NCBI RefSeq assembly: GCF_057098645.1
Contig: NZ_CM169472.1
Length of the DNA: 64,000 nt
Direction: 5' to 3' (one strand)
Positions 5,459 through 52,816 of this stretch are shown here, piece after piece (position 1 is the first letter of the stretch; the number at the start of each line of letters is the position of its first letter). A program made the position numbers and the translations under genes. A model generated the notes under the pieces. That model saw nothing but the letters and a program-made list of their open reading frames with translations. It was not told the origin of the DNA and did no database searches.

Positions 5459-7999
5459 ATGAAAAATAGAAATCGTATGATCGTGAACTGTGTTACTGCT
5501 TCCCTGATGTATTATTGGAGCTTACCTGCACTGGCTGAGCAGTCGTCAAGTGAGATAAAGATTGTTCGCGATGAATACGGCATGCCGCATATTTATGCCA
5601 ATGATACATGGCACCTATTTTATGGCTATGGCTATGTAGTAGCACAAGATCGCCTTTTTCAGATGGAAATGGCACGTCGCAGTACTCAAGGGACTGTCGC
5701 GGAAGTGCTTGGCAAAGATTTTGTGAAATTTGATAAAGATATCCGTCGTAACTACTGGCCGGATGCTATCCGGGCGCAAATTGCTGCCCTTTCCCCAGAG
5801 GATATGTCCATTCTGCAAGGCTACGCTGATGGAATGAATGCCTGGATTGATAAGGTAAATACCAATCCAGAGACGCTCTTACCAAAACAGTTTAATACAT
5901 TTGGCTTTACTCCTAAGCGCTGGGAACCGTTTGATGTCGCGATGATATTTGTGGGCACCATGGCAAACCGCTTCTCTGATAGCACTAGCGAAATTGATAA
6001 TCTGGCACTGCTAACGGCTTTAAAAGATAAATATGGTGTATCACAAGGCATGGCGGTATTTAATCAGTTGAAATGGCTGGTAAACCCATCAGCGCCAACC
6101 ACTATTGCCGTACAAGAGAGTAGCTACCCACTTAAATTTAATCAGCAAAACTCGCAAACAGCAGCTCTGTTGCCACGCTACGATTTACCTGCACCAATGC
6201 TTGACCGACCAGCAAAAGGGGCGGATGGCGCACTGCTGGCGTTAACAGCAGGGAAGAACCGGGAAACTATTGCTGCACAATTTGCACAGGGTGGTGCCAA
6301 TGGTCTGGCGGGGTATCCAACGACCAGCAATATGTGGGTGATCGGCAAAAGCAAAGCCCAGGATGCGAAAGCAATCATGGTAAATGGTCCGCAGTTTGGC
6401 TGGTATGCGCCTGCGTATACTTATGGTATTGGTCTGCACGGTGCTGGTTATGATGTCACTGGCAATACACCATTTGCCTATCCTGGGCTGGTTTTTGGTC
6501 ATAATGGTGTGATTTCCTGGGGATCAACGGCAGGTTTCGGCGATGATGTCGATATTTTTGCTGAACGGCTGTCGGCAGAGAAACCAGGCTACTACTTGCA
6601 TAATGGTAAGTGGGTGAAAATGTTAAGCCGTGAAGAAACCATTATGGTGAAAAATGGTCAGGCAGAGACCTTTACTGTCTGGCGCACGGTGCATGGCAAC
6701 ATTATCCAAACTGACCAGACGACACAAACGGCTTACGCTAAATCCCGCGCCTGGGATGGTAAAGAGGTGGCGTCTTTGCTGGCCTGGACTCATCAGATGA
6801 AGGCCAAAAATTGGCAGGAGTGGACACAGCAGGCAGCAAAACAAGCACTGACCATCAACTGGTACTATGCTGATGTGAACGGCAATATTGGTTATGTTCA
6901 TACTGGTGCTTATCCGGATCGTCAATCAGGCCATGATCCGCGATTACCCGTTCCTGGCACGGGAAAATGGGACTGGAAAGGGCTATTGCCTTTTGAAATG
7001 AACCCTAAGGTGTATAACCCCCAGTCGGGATATATTGCTAACTGGAACAATTCTCCCCAAAAAGATTATCCCGCTTCGGATCTGTTTGCCTTTTTGTGGG
7101 GTGGTGCAGATCGCGTTACGGAGATCGACCGACTGCTTGAGCAAAAGCCACGCTTAACTGCTGATCAGGCATGGGATGTTATTCGCCAAACCAGTCGTCA
7201 GGATCTTAACCTGAGGCTTTTTTTACCTACTCTGCAAGCAGCGACATCTGGTTTGACACAGAGCGATCCGCGCCGTCAGTTGGTGGATACATTAACACGT
7301 TGGGATGGCATCAATTTGCTTAATGATGATGGTAAAACCTGGCAGCAGCCAGGCTCTGCCATCCTGAACGTTTGGCTGACCAGTATGTTGAAGCGTACCG
7401 TAGTGGCTGTTGTACCTATGCCATTTGATAAGTGGTACAGCGCCAGTGGCTACGAAACAACCTAGGACGGTCCAACTGGTTCGCTGAATATAAGTGTTGG
7501 AGCAAAAATTTTGTATGAGGCGGTGCAGGGAGACAAATCACCAATCCCACAGGCGGTTGATCTGTTTGCCGGGAAATCACAGCAGGAGGTTGTGTTGGCT
7601 GCGCTGGAAGATACCTGGGAGACTCTTTCCAAACGCTATGGCAATAATGTGAGTAACTGGAAAACACCTGCAATGGCCTTAACGTTCCGGGCAAATAATT
7701 TCTTTGGCGTACCGCAGGCCGCAGCGGAAGAAGCGCGTCATCAGGCGGAGTATCAAAACCGTGGAACAGAAAACGATATGATTGTCTTCTCACCAACGAC
7801 AAGCGATCGTCCGGTGCTTGCCTGGGATGTGGTCGCACCCGGTCAGAGTGGATTTATTGCTCCCGATGGAACAGTTGATAAGCACTATGAAGATCAGCTG
7901 AAAATGTACGAAAATTTTGGTCGTAAGTCGCTCTGGTTAACGAAGCAGGATGTGGAGGCGCATAAGGAGTCGCAGGAAGTGTTGCACGTTCAGAGATAA
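5459..7999 (+). pseudogene. pga: Penicillin G acylase (amidase) precursor gene interrupted by a single in-frame TAG at 7463..7465
   Basis: ORF 5459..7465 (668 aa, [74 protein letters not shown]…) and ORF 7511..7999 (…LHVQR) are in the same frame separated only by TAG; the combined 846 codons match the E. coli penicillin G acylase precursor. Confidence 0.85.
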
Positions 8000-8012
8000 T
8001 TAAGCCCGAAAG

Positions 8013-8039
8013 CCCTCATATTCAGGAGGAATATGAGGG
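8013..8039. terminator. Stem-loop between convergent pga and yjiA (possible bidirectional terminator)
   Basis: Inverted repeat ccctcatattc-aggagg-aatatgaggg just after the pga stop; the flanking U-run is weak. Confidence 0.3.
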
Positions 8040-8076
8040 TGATAAAGTCTCAGGTATTGTGATGTTGGAGGGCTGG

Positions 8077-9033
8077 TTACTTTTTGAGTTCCGCAAACGC
8101 CGCCCGAATCTCTTCCTCCGGCAACTGAATCCCGATAAACACCATCGTGCTATGCGGTTTTTCATCGCCCCACGGGCGGTCCCAGTCGGCGCTGTAGAGG
8201 CGCTGGACGCCCTGGAACAGCAGGCGGTTAGGTTCGCCGTCAATCCACAGCATCCCTTTGTAACGCAGCAGTTTATCTGCCGATTCCAGCAGCAGGTTTT
8301 CCATCACCCGGGAAACTTCGCTGATATCTACCGGGTAATCCAGTTCCACCACAATCGACGAAATATCGTTTTGTTTATCCGCGATAAAGTGGAAACGCGG
8401 TTTGGTGCTGACGACGTTCTCTTCCAGCATAAAACCGTTGGTGTTGAACAGCAGGCCCAGGTCGATGTCGCCGTGGGTGACGGTGTAGACCGGTGCACGG
8501 GCGTTGATGCGCGCCAGGCGTTCGCGCAGTTTTTCTGCTTCGCCTGCGACGTCGGTTTTGGTCAGCAGAATACGGTCGGCGTAGCCAACCTGGGACTGGG
8601 CGATGGTGAACTGATTCATCTGCTCATCGGCATGTACCGCATCCACCAGCGCAATCACGCCGTCCAGCAGGTAACGCTGGCATAAAATCTCATGGGAGAA
8701 AAAGGTCTGAATAATCGGGCCGGGATCGGCCATGCCGGTGCATTCAATGACCAGACGATCGAACTGAATATTGCCCTTATCGAGATTATCCAGCAGGTCG
8801 AGTAGTGCGTCTTCCAGCTCGTTGGAGCGCGAACAGCAGATGCAGCCGTTGGTCAGCGTTTTGATCTGCGTGGCGCGGTCGCCAATCAATTGATCATCAA
8901 CGGAGACTTCGCCGAATTCGTTTTCAATCACGGCAATCTTGTAGCCGTGTTGTTCGTTAAGAATATGGCGCAGCAGGGTGGTTTTGCCCGCGCCTAAAAA
9001 ACCGGTGAGTAGGGTAACTGCAATCGGGTTCAT
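8077..9033 (-). CDS. yjiA: CobW/P47K-family GTPase YjiA
   Basis: Translation from internal Met MNPIAVTLLTGFLGAGKTTLLRHILNEQHGYKIAVIENEFGEVSVDDQLIGDR… with GCICC motif; 318 aa. Confidence 0.9.
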   Translation of the reverse strand: MNPIAVTLLTGFLGAGKTTLLRHILNEQHGYKIAVIENEFGEVSVDDQLIGDRATQIKTLTNGCICCSRSNELEDALLDLLDNLDKGNIQFDRLVIECTGMADPGPIIQTFFSHEILCQRYLLDGVIALVDAVHADEQMNQFTIAQSQVGYADRILLTKTDVAGEAEKLRERLARINARAPVYTVTHGDIDLGLLFNTNGFMLEENVVSTKPRFHFIADKQNDISSIVVELDYPVDISEVSRVMENLLLESADKLLRYKGMLWIDGEPNRLLFQGVQRLYSADWDRPWGDEKPHSTMVFIGIQLPEEEIRAAFAELKK

Positions 9034-41189: not shown

Positions 41190-41276
41190 TGGTGCGAGGG
41201 GGGGGACTTGAACCCCCACGTCCGTAAGGACACTAACACCTGAAGCTAGCGCGTCTACCAATTCCGCCACCTTCGC
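41190..41276 (-). tRNA. leuV: tRNA-Leu (anticodon CAG), encoded CCA
   Basis: 87-nt unit tggtgcgaggggggggacttgaacccccacgtccgtaaggacactaacacctgaagctagcgcgtctaccaattccgccaccttcgc is the reverse complement of tRNA-Leu(CAG) with long variable arm. Confidence 0.9.
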
Positions 41277-41310
41277 ACAGTCATCTTACTTTTTTTGATA
41301 TCGCCTCGTT

Positions 41311-41397
41311 TGGTGCGAGGGGGGGGACTTGAACCCCCACGTCCGTAAGAACACTAACACCTGAAGCTAGCGCGTCTACCAATTCCGCCACCTTCGC
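41311..41397 (-). tRNA. leuP: tRNA-Leu (anticodon CAG), variant copy with one substitution in the variable arm
   Basis: Second 87-nt copy; differs from the other two at one position (aagaacact vs aaggacact on the plus strand). Confidence 0.9.
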
Positions 41398-41425
41398 CCA
41401 GTGCGAGCAATATCAACGTGGTTTT

Positions 41426-41512
41426 TGGTGCGAGGGGGGGGACTTGAACCCCCACGTCCGTAAGGACACTAACACCTGAAGCTAGCGCGTCTACCAATTC
41501 CGCCACCTTCGC
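41426..41512 (-). tRNA. leuQ: tRNA-Leu (anticodon CAG)
   Basis: Third 87-nt copy, identical to the first. Confidence 0.9.
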
Positions 41513-49568: not shown

Positions 49569-50095
49569 TTGCGTAACTCCGATAATTCGTTAAAGCGTTC
49601 CATAAACATCCCGTAGGCATGGCCTGGAGCCAGTGGAATCACGTTGATCATCTCTGTTGCCGGGATACCTTCCAGCACAGGCCAGAAAGAGCCATCATCA
49701 AGCCCGAGATCGCGGCGTTCGGTTGCCAGCATGATGAGATCGGCATATTTCACGGGTGTACTCATAACCGGGGGTAACCCGTATTTCTCACGGATTACGG
49801 CGTCTATTTTTTCTTCCATCCGTTTATAGTCAGGAAGAAGGCGTTTCAGTGGAGCCGGGATGTCCTGGCAATACGCTTCTGTTGCATCATGCATTAACGC
49901 TTCAAAAGCAAATTCCTGCGGTACCAGTTTGCTGCAAAGCACCGCATGTTGGGCGACGCTGTAGAAGTGTGAAAGATGACCGGCAAAGCGACAGATATTT
50001 GAAAGGGAAACTGCGATATCGTTAATCACGATGTCGTCTTTATTTATCCTGTCATAATAAAAATGCTTCCCGGAAAAAGTTTTAATAAATGACAT
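49559..50095 (-). CDS. HD-domain phosphohydrolase, YfbR/YfdR-like 5'-deoxynucleotidase
   Basis: ORF 49559..50122; from MSFIKT… 178 aa; HD motif context (…NICRFAGHLSHFYSVAQHAVLCS…, …HDATEAYCQDIP…). Confidence 0.7.
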   Translation of the reverse strand: MSFIKTFSGKHFYYDRINKDDIVINDIAVSLSNICRFAGHLSHFYSVAQHAVLCSKLVPQEFAFEALMHDATEAYCQDIPAPLKRLLPDYKRMEEKIDAVIREKYGLPPVMSTPVKYADLIMLATERRDLGLDDGSFWPVLEGIPATEMINVIPLAPGHAYGMFMERFNELSELRKCA

Positions 50096-50222
50096 TTTGT
50101 TCTCCACGTATATGCGCTGCACCGCGCTGAATTTTGGTTAAAGAAAACCCTCGCCATCAGGCGATTATTGAGTCAATTATGTTTCCATAAATGCCCCCGC
50201 AGGGGCATTTGCAGTAAGGAAA

Positions 50223-51047
50223 TCAGGCGGTAAAAGTACCAATAAAGGTTTCTACTTTGCTGTCTTTGAGTTTCTCAACAAGCAGATCACGAAATTCGTT
50301 AGCCATTTCTTCCTGCACTGCTTCCAGCTGAATAATGCGCAGAACCAGTACAGGACGATCGCCAGTGATAATGCTGAGGCGTAATTTAAACGGACGTTCT
50401 TGCAGGCCTTCAAACGGAACGCATTTAAATTCAAATGCCACTGGCATAATGTCTTTGGTCTTCGCTTCGACAGATTCCATCAGGGAGCGTTTGCCGCTGA
50501 AGTCATTATCTTCAAAATCAGCGGTCTGGTTTGCTTCAATCGTGATTTTACGGACTGCCGCAGCCGCTTTTGTTGCCTGAATGGCGTCACCATTAGCATC
50601 AAAGCCCACAAGGTAGTCGGCCCAGTCTTCAATCCATTCTGCCAGTGACTTCTGGGAGTTACGCTCGCCGTTAACAGACAACAGGGCAGAGAACGGTGCT
50701 GTCTTTTTCAGTTTGAGAGTGGCGGTGTTATCTGCGTGACCTGGTTCATCAATAGTACCCAGGTTAAGCACACTGACGGCACGCATATTATCAGCATCGA
50801 TAAAGCAGCGGGTGCCTTCATCTGCAAGATCTTTAGAATAACGGGTAAAATCATCGATGCTGGCAGTGGAAAGCGCGCCACGGAAACGGAAGCGATTTAA
50901 ATTAAATTTTTCCAGATCATGAATGCGGAAATTCTCAGGCAATGCCACAGCATCGGCACCAATCTTACTGATAATTTCATTAACACCCTGAGCAGAAATA
51001 AGGGCATGGATTTGATTAATTGCGGTTGCGTCTAAGTTCTGAGACAT
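50223..51047 (-). CDS. Prophage protein, YfdQ-like (DUF2303)
   Basis: 274-aa [51 protein letters not shown]…; length and position match the CPS-53 yfdQ-type gene. Confidence 0.55.
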
Positions 51048-51112: not shown

Positions 51113-51475
51113 TTAATGACCTGCTGCGCGTAGTTTTCCGTCAGGTTCACCGGCAAGAGTCAGTAATTGTCCCTGGTCTTCCTGCAGAATAGTCAGGCGA
51201 CCACCGCGATTGACATACATCGGCGTTTCGGTGGTGTCTTCTTCGGAAATTTTCCCGCGGTTAGTCGGGCGAACATATGAGAGTTTGTGTTTGATTTTCA
51301 CACGGTTCTCATCAAATGGTTCGATTTCCAGGTTGAGTGAGACCTTACCTTTGGTTTTCGTGTTCATCACACCGGAAGCGACTTCACTGAGAACTGCGCC
51401 GATTTTGGTTTCAAATACGCCGCCGTCCAGCTCCCCGATAAATGCCTGCACATCAGTACTGCGTTCGCTAGCCAT
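51113..51475 (-). CDS. Prophage protein, YfdP-like; first gene of the early-left operon
   Basis: Likely start at ATG (MASERSTDVQAFIGELDGGVF…) preceded by AGGAG; the ORF-track start at 51706 is a TTG and the intervening translation looks non-coding. Confidence 0.5.
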   Translation of the reverse strand: MASERSTDVQAFIGELDGGVFETKIGAVLSEVASGVMNTKTKGKVSLNLEIEPFDENRVKIKHKLSYVRPTNRGKISEEDTTETPMYVNRGGRLTILQEDQGQLLTLAGEPDGKLRAAGH

Positions 51476-52075
51476 TTTGCTGCTCCTCATCATATCGACC
51501 CTGCAAGGTCGGTTGGTTTCTCCACAAAACAGAGAAGAACACCTGCGGTGGCAGCCGCCCGGATGGATTGGGTTATGAGCCCGTCGTCCGGTGATGCTCT
51601 TCTCTGTTTTGTAAAAAGAGCGGTACCAGCCGGAAGCAAGTGTACAAACTGGTACCGCCAAAGCAGTGGCTGTTGTGGTGGGCTTGTCACTCAGGCGTAT
51701 GGTCAACCTGACAATCCGGTGTCCTCAACGGGGAAAGAGTAACCCCGCCATACTTACCGCCGCGCCATTTCGCGGATTACCACAACGCTGAGAGCACTTA
51801 GCCAGTTACAGCACCACACTTTGTCGCGGCTCCATAAATGCCCTCATCGTTGCACCCTGGTCTCTTCCCAGGCGTCAAACCGAATCGCCACGCTGGTTAG
51901 GCGTCTTATCAGCATCATCATTGACTTGCACATTCCGGCTACCTGGTTTGTTTGCCCGAGCAAGGAGTGGATTGTCCCCTTTAACGTCCCCAGACCGCTA
52001 ACGACGCATGTGCCATACGCCGTGTTACAACCAAATTTTGTTTAATCTTGCCTGTGCTGTGTTTCTTTTAGATAC

Positions 52076-52104
52076 ATTATGTATCCCAAGGGTACATTGT
52101 CAAG
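52076..52104 (-). promoter_or_regulatory. Candidate pL-type early-left promoter with overlapping operator
   Basis: On the minus strand TTGACA (52099..52104), 17-nt spacer, ATAATG (52076..52081); the spacer contains a GTACC…GGaTAC operator-like half-site pair. Confidence 0.45.
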
Positions 52105-52105
52105 T

Positions 52106-52129
52106 ATAAAAAAACCTGCCGAAGCAGGT
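52106..52129 (-). terminator. Rho-independent terminator downstream of cI
   Basis: cctgccgaagcagg hairpin flanked by an A-run (U-run on the cI transcript). Confidence 0.55.
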
Positions 52130-52141
52130 TATAAATATTGA

Positions 52142-52816
52142 TTAGGCCTTTATTATGTATCTTCTTGGTTTTCCTGAGAAAATCACTGTACCAATTATAG
52201 AGCAATTACCGTTGATCTTAATGTAAGGTTCAGGCCAGTTTGGGTTTAATGCTTTGAGGTAACGCTGTGTTCCATCTTCTATCAACCGCTTGAAGGTGGT
52301 TTCGCCTGTATCGTGCATCAATGCAATAACGTCGTCACCGTGGCAGGCAGGGACTTCAGGATCAACAAAAATCATGTCTCCCGGGCGGTACTCATCAATC
52401 ATTGAATCACCAATCACCCGCAAGATATAAGTCATTTCGCCACAGGGTACAGGGCAGGGGTAAGTTTCTGCTGTGCTCAAATCAACCTCAGAATAGCCAA
52501 CTTCTTTCCATGCTCCGGCCTGTACCCATGATATGACAGGGACTAACGTTATTTGTTTGTTAGTGATTGAAACATCAGGTTTTTTTGTGATGTTCGTGGT
52601 CTGGTGTTCTTGATCAAGCCATCCGACAGGCAGGTCGAAACATTTTTCGATGTGCCGCGCCATGCTGTCACCGATATTTTTAGTAGCACCATCTCCCATA
52701 AACCTGCTGGTCTGGGTTGGCTCGCGATCAATCATGGTGGCAAAGGAAGAATTCCCGCCAACACCATCTCTCAGTTTTCTGGCGTTAGACCGCCGGATGT
52801 CATGGACTGTTTTCAT
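52142..52816 (-). CDS. cI: Prophage repressor, cI-like (N-terminal DNA-binding domain + C-terminal S24 LexA-type peptidase)
   Basis: 224-aa ORF; C-terminal …LRVIGDSMIDEYRPGDMIFVDPEVPACHGDDVIALMHDTGETTFKRL… with Ser and Lys catalytic dyad context. Confidence 0.8.
   Translation of the reverse strand: MKTVHDIRRSNARKLRDGVGGNSSFATMIDREPTQTSRFMGDGATKNIGDSMARHIEKCFDLPVGWLDQEHQTTNITKKPDVSITNKQITLVPVISWVQAGAWKEVGYSEVDLSTAETYPCPVPCGEMTYILRVIGDSMIDEYRPGDMIFVDPEVPACHGDDVIALMHDTGETTFKRLIEDGTQRYLKALNPNWPEPYIKINGNCSIIGTVIFSGKPRRYIIKA

Follow-up and report, generated by a model that had tools for sequence, protein, structure and literature searches.

A conserved pseudoknotted RNA and a DicF-type locus in the early-left leader of a lambdoid prophage

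We analysed the leader that separates a pL-type promoter from the first early-left gene in a lambdoid prophage of the cdtI / Ayreon / Stx2c / mEp460 / SfV type, present in a stretch of 64,000 nucleotides (the window) of contig NZ_CM169472.1 (NCBI RefSeq assembly GCF_057098645.1). The leader occupies positions 51476 to 52068 and is read from the minus strand. Its 5' part is a structured RNA of about 190 nt (the core), which we could not find described and which would represent a new RNA family; its 3' part is a divergent representative of the known DicF locus. We lean towards reading the leader as a polycistronic non-coding RNA precursor that heads the early-left operon, resembling dicBF with an extra RNA at the 5' side. 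The leader is conserved across many phages and its folding beats that of its shuffles (z = -3.76, with 0 of 100 shuffles as good). When compared with phage genomes by BLAST, the 600 nt separate into three blocks, each having its own distribution. The parts of the core are listed below, with helix positions counted from position 1 = 52025.

52025..51837, minus strand: core structured RNA, ~190 nt; covariance model 150.8 bits, single copy in the window
Core positions 4-8/20-24: helix P1
Core positions 29-36/80-83+87-90: helix P2
P3 and P4: variable hairpins; invariant segment GGUAGCCGGAAUGUGCAAG
Core positions 122-125/133-136: helix P5, with a 7-nt loop YUNACCA
Core positions 128-131/145-148: pseudoknot PK2
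Core positions 154-158/166-170: helix P6, with the loop GAAGAGA

The core is a structured RNA with an architecture of six helices and a pseudoknot. A seven-way alignment displays long invariant runs, variable hairpins between them and compensatory changes. In a hand-built alignment of 33 diverse sequences, which defined P1, P2, P5, P6, P3/P4 and two candidate pseudoknots, 97.2% of the cells are paired and 14 pairs have changed on both sides; none of 500 shuffles equals this and all slid controls collapse. The model-based alignment (96 hits, comprising 71 distinct sequences) likewise has 97.2% of its cells paired, with double changes in 12 of 22 pairs and 0 of 500 shuffles equal. Using the covariance model, one match is found in the 64-kb window and one per locus in 96 loci. 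Since G-U pairs are frequent in the core helices, the signal is strand-specific. PK2 joins CACC of the P5 loop to GGUG, a combination that reads AACC and GGUU in the lineage of the window. Among the distinct sequences one of its pairs reads C-G 59 times and A-U 11 times, without any mixed case; this swap may go back to a single evolutionary event. The second candidate pseudoknot, PK1 (GCACAU of the P1 loop with AUGUGC), is not claimed here, as all of its pairs are invariant and covariation gives it no support.

The core is widespread. At least 120 IMG/VR contigs have its invariant 19-mer GGTAGCCGGAATGTGCAAG, and about one third of the complete E. coli genomes (1833 of 5426) contain the core, at 1914 chromosomal and 554 plasmid places; no match listed for these genomes carries a PGAP annotation of it. 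It is furthermore present in 593 plasmid records, mostly P1-like, from Escherichia, Salmonella, Klebsiella and Shigella. All matches with a named host belong to the Enterobacteriaceae (Escherichia, Shigella, Salmonella, Klebsiella and Enterobacter). A gapped degenerate pattern searched against 100,044 species-representative genomes yielded 17 matches, all of them chance hits in unrelated phyla with the other motifs absent; given that a similar gapped pattern does match true members, the core family is absent from the species representatives. Carriers include Stx/lambdoid phages (Stx2a, Stx2c and Stx2k converting), epsilon15-like phages and P1-like phage-plasmids, as well as phages of Shigella, Salmonella and Klebsiella. 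The core also follows the repressor gene of other lambdoid immunity types (mEp390, for example), stands directly before tRNA-Arg(UCU) in epsilon15-like Uetakeviruses and a Klebsiella phage, and lies unannotated in P1, P7 and D6, directly after tRNA-Ile2 and before ban.

Even at E <= 10, neither the window leader nor any of seven diverse relatives gives an Rfam 15 match for the core; elsewhere the same scans returned the tRNAs in relatives, and C4 and isrK in another part of the window. Neither a tRNA nor a transfer-messenger RNA (tmRNA) was detected in the window leader by ARAGORN or the Rfam tRNA model. In the literature searched we found no description of the core RNA, of locus tags overlapping it or of such an enterobacterial phage RNA, although an earlier description is possible.

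Downstream of the core the leader contains the following elements.

51854..51836 / 51800..51780 (region 51855..51780), minus strand: helix P7, ~18 bp with a 1x1 internal loop, enclosing a variable hairpin
51786..51613, minus strand: long-DicF homolog as a whole, matching the 190-nt "long DicF" region of K-12 Qin
51786..51664, minus strand: body of the long-DicF homolog (module B), in which GUUGUGGU (51786..51779) pairs with ACCACAAC (51679..51672)
51659..51613, minus strand: DicF-type terminator hairpin, stem 51659..51649 / 51629..51619, 19-nt loop, U5 at 51617..51613

P6 is followed by a conserved YAAC and then by a purine-rich RAGAGCRY strand, which pairs with RYGCUCUY located 40-100 nt downstream, just 5' of the conserved CGUUGUGG. 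This helix, P7, exists in a number of compensated versions (GAGAGCAUU/AGUGCUCUC, AAAGAGCG/CGCUCUUU, AGAACAUUG/CAAUGUUCU, AAGCGCACUCC/GGAGUGCGCUU and GAUGGCU/AGUCAUC), and true strand pairs reach a mean of -16.8 kcal/mol against -11.2 kcal/mol for mismatched partners. In 31 contexts tRNA-Arg(UCU) starts exactly at the P7 end, and RNase P would therefore cut there in these relatives. A co-oriented tRNA is found in 34 of 130 contexts, being either Arg-UCU downstream or Ile2-CAU upstream. A GUUGUGG motif can pair upstream (as lower P7) or downstream with CCACAAC. A boxA in the leader was also considered: the boxA-like UGCUCUUU, seen in some relatives, forms the 3' strand of P7; being paired there and covarying with its partner, it is not a conserved single-stranded boxA.

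Some loci display variations on this arrangement. A plain terminator closes core plus P7 in L037 (IMG/VR 2791355398_000002, ~7940-8560), L068, L072-L074 and L108, and the L037-type unit has repeated GGAAAGAC(C) motifs on both sides, in at least six copies. In phiV10 (L005, 2430-2490) and other Uetakevirus loci the sequence GUCGUUAAAU...GGAGUGNGCUUU..GUGUG is present 5' of the core; it resembles the P7 3' strand plus GUUGUGG, as in K-12 and L037, and hints at a tandem or permuted module ancestry.

The alignment of window positions 51786..51613 with K-12 Qin takes in the sequence immediately before dicF, the DicF hairpin and its U-run, with the hairpin flanks UUUGGCGGUAYCAGUUU ... CCGC(C/U)CUUUUU conserved between the window and K-12 DicF. 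Judged by this homology, the window hairpin is of the DicF type. Such hairpins, whose stem covaries, are present in 68 of 130 contexts. Module B closely resembles the stretch directly ahead of dicF in K-12 Qin and matches the 'dicF-like region' annotated in P1; in epsilon15-like and Klebsiella phages its position is taken by tRNA-Arg(UCU). Homologs of the window DicF-type locus are left unannotated by PGAP. A further homolog of the hairpin, with 84.6% identity, lies beneath the e14 gene ymfH in K-12 strains.

For K-12, two DicF species have been reported, one of 190 nt that depends on RNase III and one of 53 nt that depends on RNase E; both arise by processing of the dicBp transcript (10.1101/2023.04.14.536235). 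The P7 duplex of K-12 has an energy of -35.7 kcal/mol, and the point 190 nt upstream of the DicF 3' end is inside its 3' strand. Because the 5' end of the 190-nt species falls in the duplex, the position of K-12 P7 fits the published RNase III-dependent product, and the window P7 corresponds to this duplex, which holds the RNase III-made 5' end of long DicF. The core is absent from K-12. At the Qin locus (L151, 1671-1759) the P7 duplex and the YAAC junction are nonetheless kept 5' of dicF; as K-12 retains both without the core, descent of the Qin locus from a core-bearing ancestor is suggested.

The leader is placed between a repressor gene and the early-left genes, with the following flanking and terminal elements.

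52816..52142, minus strand: repressor gene (cI-type, S24), directly 5' of the terminator and the pL promoter
52130..52113, minus strand: intrinsic terminator of the S24 cI-type repressor gene; an annotated terminator in Ayreon and SfV
52103..52076, minus strand: pL-type sigma-70 promoter; -35 TTGACA 52103..52098, -10 CATAAT 52081..52076, 16-nt spacer, 11/12 positions match
52069..52026, minus strand: short 5' segment from the predicted start site to the core; its final ~12 nt (AUUUGGUUGUAAC) are common to P1
51612..51524, minus strand: H10, a long conserved hairpin (ACAAAACAGAGAAGAGCAUCACC ... GGUGUUCUUCUCUGUUUUGU, conserved interior CCGGACGACGGGCUCAUAACCCAAUCCAUCCGGGCGG), directly 5' of the yfdP ribosome-binding site
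51487..51113, minus strand: yfdP-like gene with Shine-Dalgarno (GAGGAG 51487..51482, ATG 51475, 120 aa), the first gene of the early-left operon

An initial annotation of this DNA had located the promoter just after the cI terminator, with operator-like half-sites, and the first gene with a good Shine-Dalgarno at 51475, leaving a leader of about 590 nt without an N-like open reading frame (ORF). We find the same: the terminator directly precedes the promoter, which is overlapped by an operator-like inverted repeat (52060-52096, core GATACAT/ATGTATC), and none of the mechanical ORFs between promoter and yfdP (three of the minus strand with 39, 26 and 66 aa, two antisense with 74 and 64 aa, and yfdP extended to a TTG start) is Arg-rich or N-like. 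The promoter itself stands as a strong sigma-70 promoter of the minus strand, only with a spacer of 16 instead of 17 nt and CATAAT as its -10 box. The suggestion that the leader encodes a structured regulatory RNA, to be checked by folding and covariance analysis, is borne out by the folding score given above and by compensatory changes across relatives in the core helices, P7 and the DicF-type hairpin; the DicF-type nature of the 3' third of the leader had been missed.

The record of phage Ayreon has depositors' promoter and terminator annotations at the equivalent place, and a mosaic boundary with other immunity types is located at about 52042. Placement under repressor-controlled promoters is a recurring property of the core. 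In lambdoid phages of several immunity types it begins 6-55 nt downstream of a promoter of the TTGACA type, accompanied by operator-like palindromes; epsilon15-like phages have a TTGACA box beside a palindrome ~100 nt upstream of it, and in P1 the core is part of the C1-repressed ban operon. Given these repressor-type promoters and the repressed ban operon, the core RNA is expected to be made early, upon infection or induction. In some immunity types (L013, L034, L081 and L106) a non-coding module AAUACCACCGAGCCUGAUGUGGUGAAAAGACAGGCA, forming a small hairpin, lies 5' of the core; in SfV (L002, 2225-2260) the same module stands directly before the DicF-type module.

In 98 of 130 contexts a hairpin resembling a terminator lies downstream of the core, at a distance that mostly stays within 500 nt. 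The layout in epsilon15-like and Klebsiella phages comprises a different second hairpin and a canonical terminator, followed at once by Shine-Dalgarno and ATG. The first ORFs downstream belong to diverse families of unknown function, always co-oriented with the core; in view of this diversity the core has no fixed protein partner, and a conserved partner was dropped as a candidate. In the window the yfdP-like protein falls in phrog_204 (a PHROG family of unknown function) and its gene is followed by yfdQ-, yfdR- and yfdS-like genes. The outer stem of H10 shows compensatory changes between the window and locus L013, and H10 is retained in SfV, SfII and ST64B-type phages that do not have the core; possibly it is a control element in the 5' untranslated region of yfdP. 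The arrangement of cI, gap and yfdP without N is also found in Stx2a_1447 and phiSTEC1575-Stx2k, and SfII, SfV and SfIV have been reported to be without N, cII and cIII (SfIV genome paper). SfV shares the repressor and promoter region with the window and retains the DicF-type module, with an acidic 98-aa ORF instead of the core.

For a polycistronic precursor the following course of events might be proposed. Upon induction or infection pL would fire and the ~190-nt pseudoknotted core RNA would be produced first, then the ~18-bp P7, and then the long-DicF homolog ending in the DicF-type hairpin and U5. RNase III would cut P7, as in the homologous K-12 duplex, and so separate the core from the DicF-like RNA; where relatives have tRNA-Arg instead of the long-DicF body, the corresponding cut would fall to RNase P. 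Many polymerases would stop at the DicF-type terminator, and read-through would lead into H10 and the yfdP-like early-left genes. Cutting of the window P7 by RNase III is proposed from the conservation of the P7 duplex together with the K-12 data, and homology likewise points to the putative processing sites and to termination within the leader. As to the function of the core, we tentatively propose, with somewhat less than even confidence, that it is a released early phage RNA which acts on a host component through its invariant loops and junctions. This role is favoured since the core is bracketed by processing sites, is terminator-ended in most contexts and stands alone in P1.

A number of observations weigh against the precursor reading. 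The Rfam DicF model (RF00039) finds no match in window positions 51476-52110 at E <= 10. Complementarity of the window hairpin to the start region of ftsZ amounts to -24.7 kcal/mol, with 137 of 200 shuffles as good, against -38.5 kcal/mol and 1 of 200 shuffles for K-12 DicF; the DicF-type versions of phiV10 and the Klebsiella phage are likewise no better than shuffles, and ftsZ targeting by the window hairpin was rejected on this account. The fold around the RNase III site is ambiguous because GUUGUGG has two possible partners. The modules are also separable and co-processing is not obligatory, given that SfV has the 3' modules without the core and that the P1 core lies 2 kb from the dicF-like region. 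A scan for compensated PK1 variants returned 3 contigs, of which 2 are informative, and in both the 3' strand has changed without a change of the 5' strand; with these rare variants uncompensated, PK1 is unsupported. Finally, the start site, the processing sites and the efficiency of termination in the leader are predictions.

The alternative that survives best, though we regard it as unlikely, is that the core acts as a put-like, RNA-only processive antiterminator, which would bind polymerase on the nascent pL transcript and replace N. It would then constitute a new class of RNA-only antiterminators, unrelated to put and nearly three times larger, serving N-less Stx/lambdoid, epsilon15-like and P1 phages by carrying polymerase through DicF-type and other terminators; this too we hold to be doubtful. 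The position of the core fits such a role, directly after repressor-controlled early promoters of several immunity types, in phages without N, always co-oriented with diverse downstream genes and separated from the first of them by terminators. The epsilon15-like and Klebsiella phages leave no room for a promoter, as their Shine-Dalgarno directly follows the terminator U-tract, and in K-12, where the core is lacking, a transcript extending past dicF was not detected (10.1101/2023.04.14.536235). On the other hand, the core occurs once per phage, SfV-type phages keep the terminator module and the early-left genes with neither core nor N, and a terminator-resistant polymerase of epsilon15-like phages would, in spite of three terminators placed within ~600 nt, transcribe the terminase gene in antisense. 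A cut in P7 or next to the tRNA would free the RNA, although put needs no tether (put cryo-EM paper).

A relationship with put itself, as raised in the initial annotation, does not hold up. There is no likeness in sequence or architecture: HK022 putL shares none of the invariant motifs of the core, and the core model has no match in the HK022 immunity region. The put RNA of ~70 nt consists of two stem-loops, occurs at both pL and pR, and acts in cis on RNA polymerase via the beta' zinc-binding domain to suppress termination (put cryo-EM paper). The window (64 kb) contains a single core after pL only, and there is one per locus in 96 loci; the core is thus present once per phage, with none in the pR operon. 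A lambda N/nut system, which comprises an Arg-rich N after pL, a single-stranded boxA and a boxB hairpin, was rejected as well: pL is not followed by an Arg-rich ORF, the proteins encoded downstream fall in PHROG families of unknown function and a conserved single-stranded boxA is lacking.

It might also be argued that the whole leader of ~550 nt is one large 'ornate' RNA like ROOL or GOLLD, forming a self-assembling or tRNA-associated particle, which we consider improbable. The leader is prophage-borne, with many helices and a pseudoknot, and the tRNA of the relatives lies in the linker between conserved and variable parts; GOLLD and ROOL have been reported near tRNA islands, and tRNAs sometimes occur in the GOLLD linker. 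However, neither seven diverse members nor the window match the Rfam GOLLD or ROOL models at E <= 10, the modules occur apart (the core alone in P1, the 3' part alone in SfV and K-12), and in K-12 the homologous RNA is processed to species of 190 and 53 nt.

Similarly improbable in our view is a riboswitch-like sensor, in which the core would respond to a ligand, protein or tRNA and choose between termination and read-through at the DicF-type hairpin. The compact pseudoknotted fold, the long invariant junctions, the terminator that follows and the two alternative partners of GUUGUGG would suit this, and the CACCA of the P5 loop resembles a tRNA 3' end, so that its partner GGUG could in principle, on our reading, be competed for. 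The terminator nevertheless follows at a distance of 150-450 nt that is filled by variable inserts or a complete tRNA, and does not overlap the sensor as in known riboswitches; moreover, no terminator follows the core in P1, and the covariation of PK2 marks the internal pairing as the selected state.

A decayed N gene (also raised in the initial annotation) or a small protein gene, either the 74-aa antisense ORF or the TTG-extended yfdP frame, can practically be discarded: mechanical ORFs exist, hypothetical proteins are annotated over the region in cdtI, mEp460, Ayreon and phiSTEC1575, and a frame of 60 or more codons without a stop can be found in 85 of 99 distinct cores, but the open frame varies between sequences and the spacers between invariant blocks fall in all three modulo-3 classes (which rules out a conserved protein on either strand), the invariant runs of up to 19 bases lack wobble variation, the helix changes are compensatory with strand-specific G-U pairs, from one record to another the annotated ORFs change position and strand, and an Arg-rich peptide is absent. 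The 74-aa ORF (window 51821-52045, plus strand) is antisense to the core and has annotated equivalents in phages, such as mEp460_037 ('similar to UTI89_C5094') and a coding sequence in cdtI; since its frame is not conserved across the core family, these annotations are probably false calls over an RNA gene.

Other elements were observed elsewhere in the window. On the pR side of the immunity region lie isrK (54059-54135, plus strand, Rfam 63.7 bits) and a C4 antisense RNA (54160-54247, plus strand, Rfam 82.8 bits), a pair that makes up an antirepressor control module like that of P1/P7 immI or Gifsy-1. Both are spanned by a mechanical 278-aa ORF (53699-54535), named 'immunity region' in the SfV and Ayreon records, which may be a mis-annotation. 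Three tandem tRNA-Leu(CAG) genes (41190-41512, minus strand), ~10 kb from the early-left region, are presumably host genes. Weak, sub-threshold Rfam matches to STnc100 are seen after the yfdQ-like gene (50052-50231, minus strand), in the ban operon of P1 (L004, 1571-1690) and in L001 (3470-3650), and may represent another shared non-coding element of early operons.

Summarizing, a highly conserved pseudoknotted RNA of ~190 nt lies without annotation in roughly a third of the complete E. coli genomes, where records are blank over the core or covered by mutually inconsistent "hypothetical proteins"; annotation pipelines should include a covariance model of the family. In about 2,000 phage genomes surveyed earlier by BLAST no DicF was found, and the present results show DicF-type RNAs as a normal component of viable temperate phages. 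The question of how N-less lambdoid phages express their early-left genes also becomes testable: as no element other than the core is conserved from pL to the first terminator, N-independent early transcription can be addressed directly, and Ayreon grows on K-12.

Of the known systems, the dicBF operon of K-12 Qin is a repressor-controlled, early-left-type lambdoid operon in which an RNA is obtained by processing of a polycistronic transcript, a feature that homology suggests for the leader too. It differs in being without the core and in having the protein genes ydfABC in front of dicF; the window hairpin, in turn, is longer than DicF of K-12 and without the 19-nt single-stranded 5' part of the 53-nt form. 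The leader of the P1 ban operon likewise has a long-DicF body homolog and a terminator hairpin near its promoter, with both modules in one C1-repressed operon; in contrast to the window, their order is reversed and they are ~2 kb apart. The P1 core, positioned 2 nt after tRNA-Ile2 and ~100 nt before ban, has neither P7 nor a following terminator, and only the 'dicF-like region' is annotated in the P1 record, the core being unannotated. With HK022 put the leader has in common a structured RNA directly after pL in a lambdoid phage without N and with terminators downstream, whereas the core is ~190 nt long with six helices and a pseudoknot, has one copy and also occurs in the non-lambdoid P1 and epsilon15-like phages. 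Like GOLLD and ROOL, the core is carried by phages and prophages, is elaborately folded, of unknown function and found near tRNA genes (co-oriented in 34 of 130 contexts); unlike them, it is smaller, has only Enterobacteriaceae among its named hosts and belongs to a set of modules that are independent of each other.

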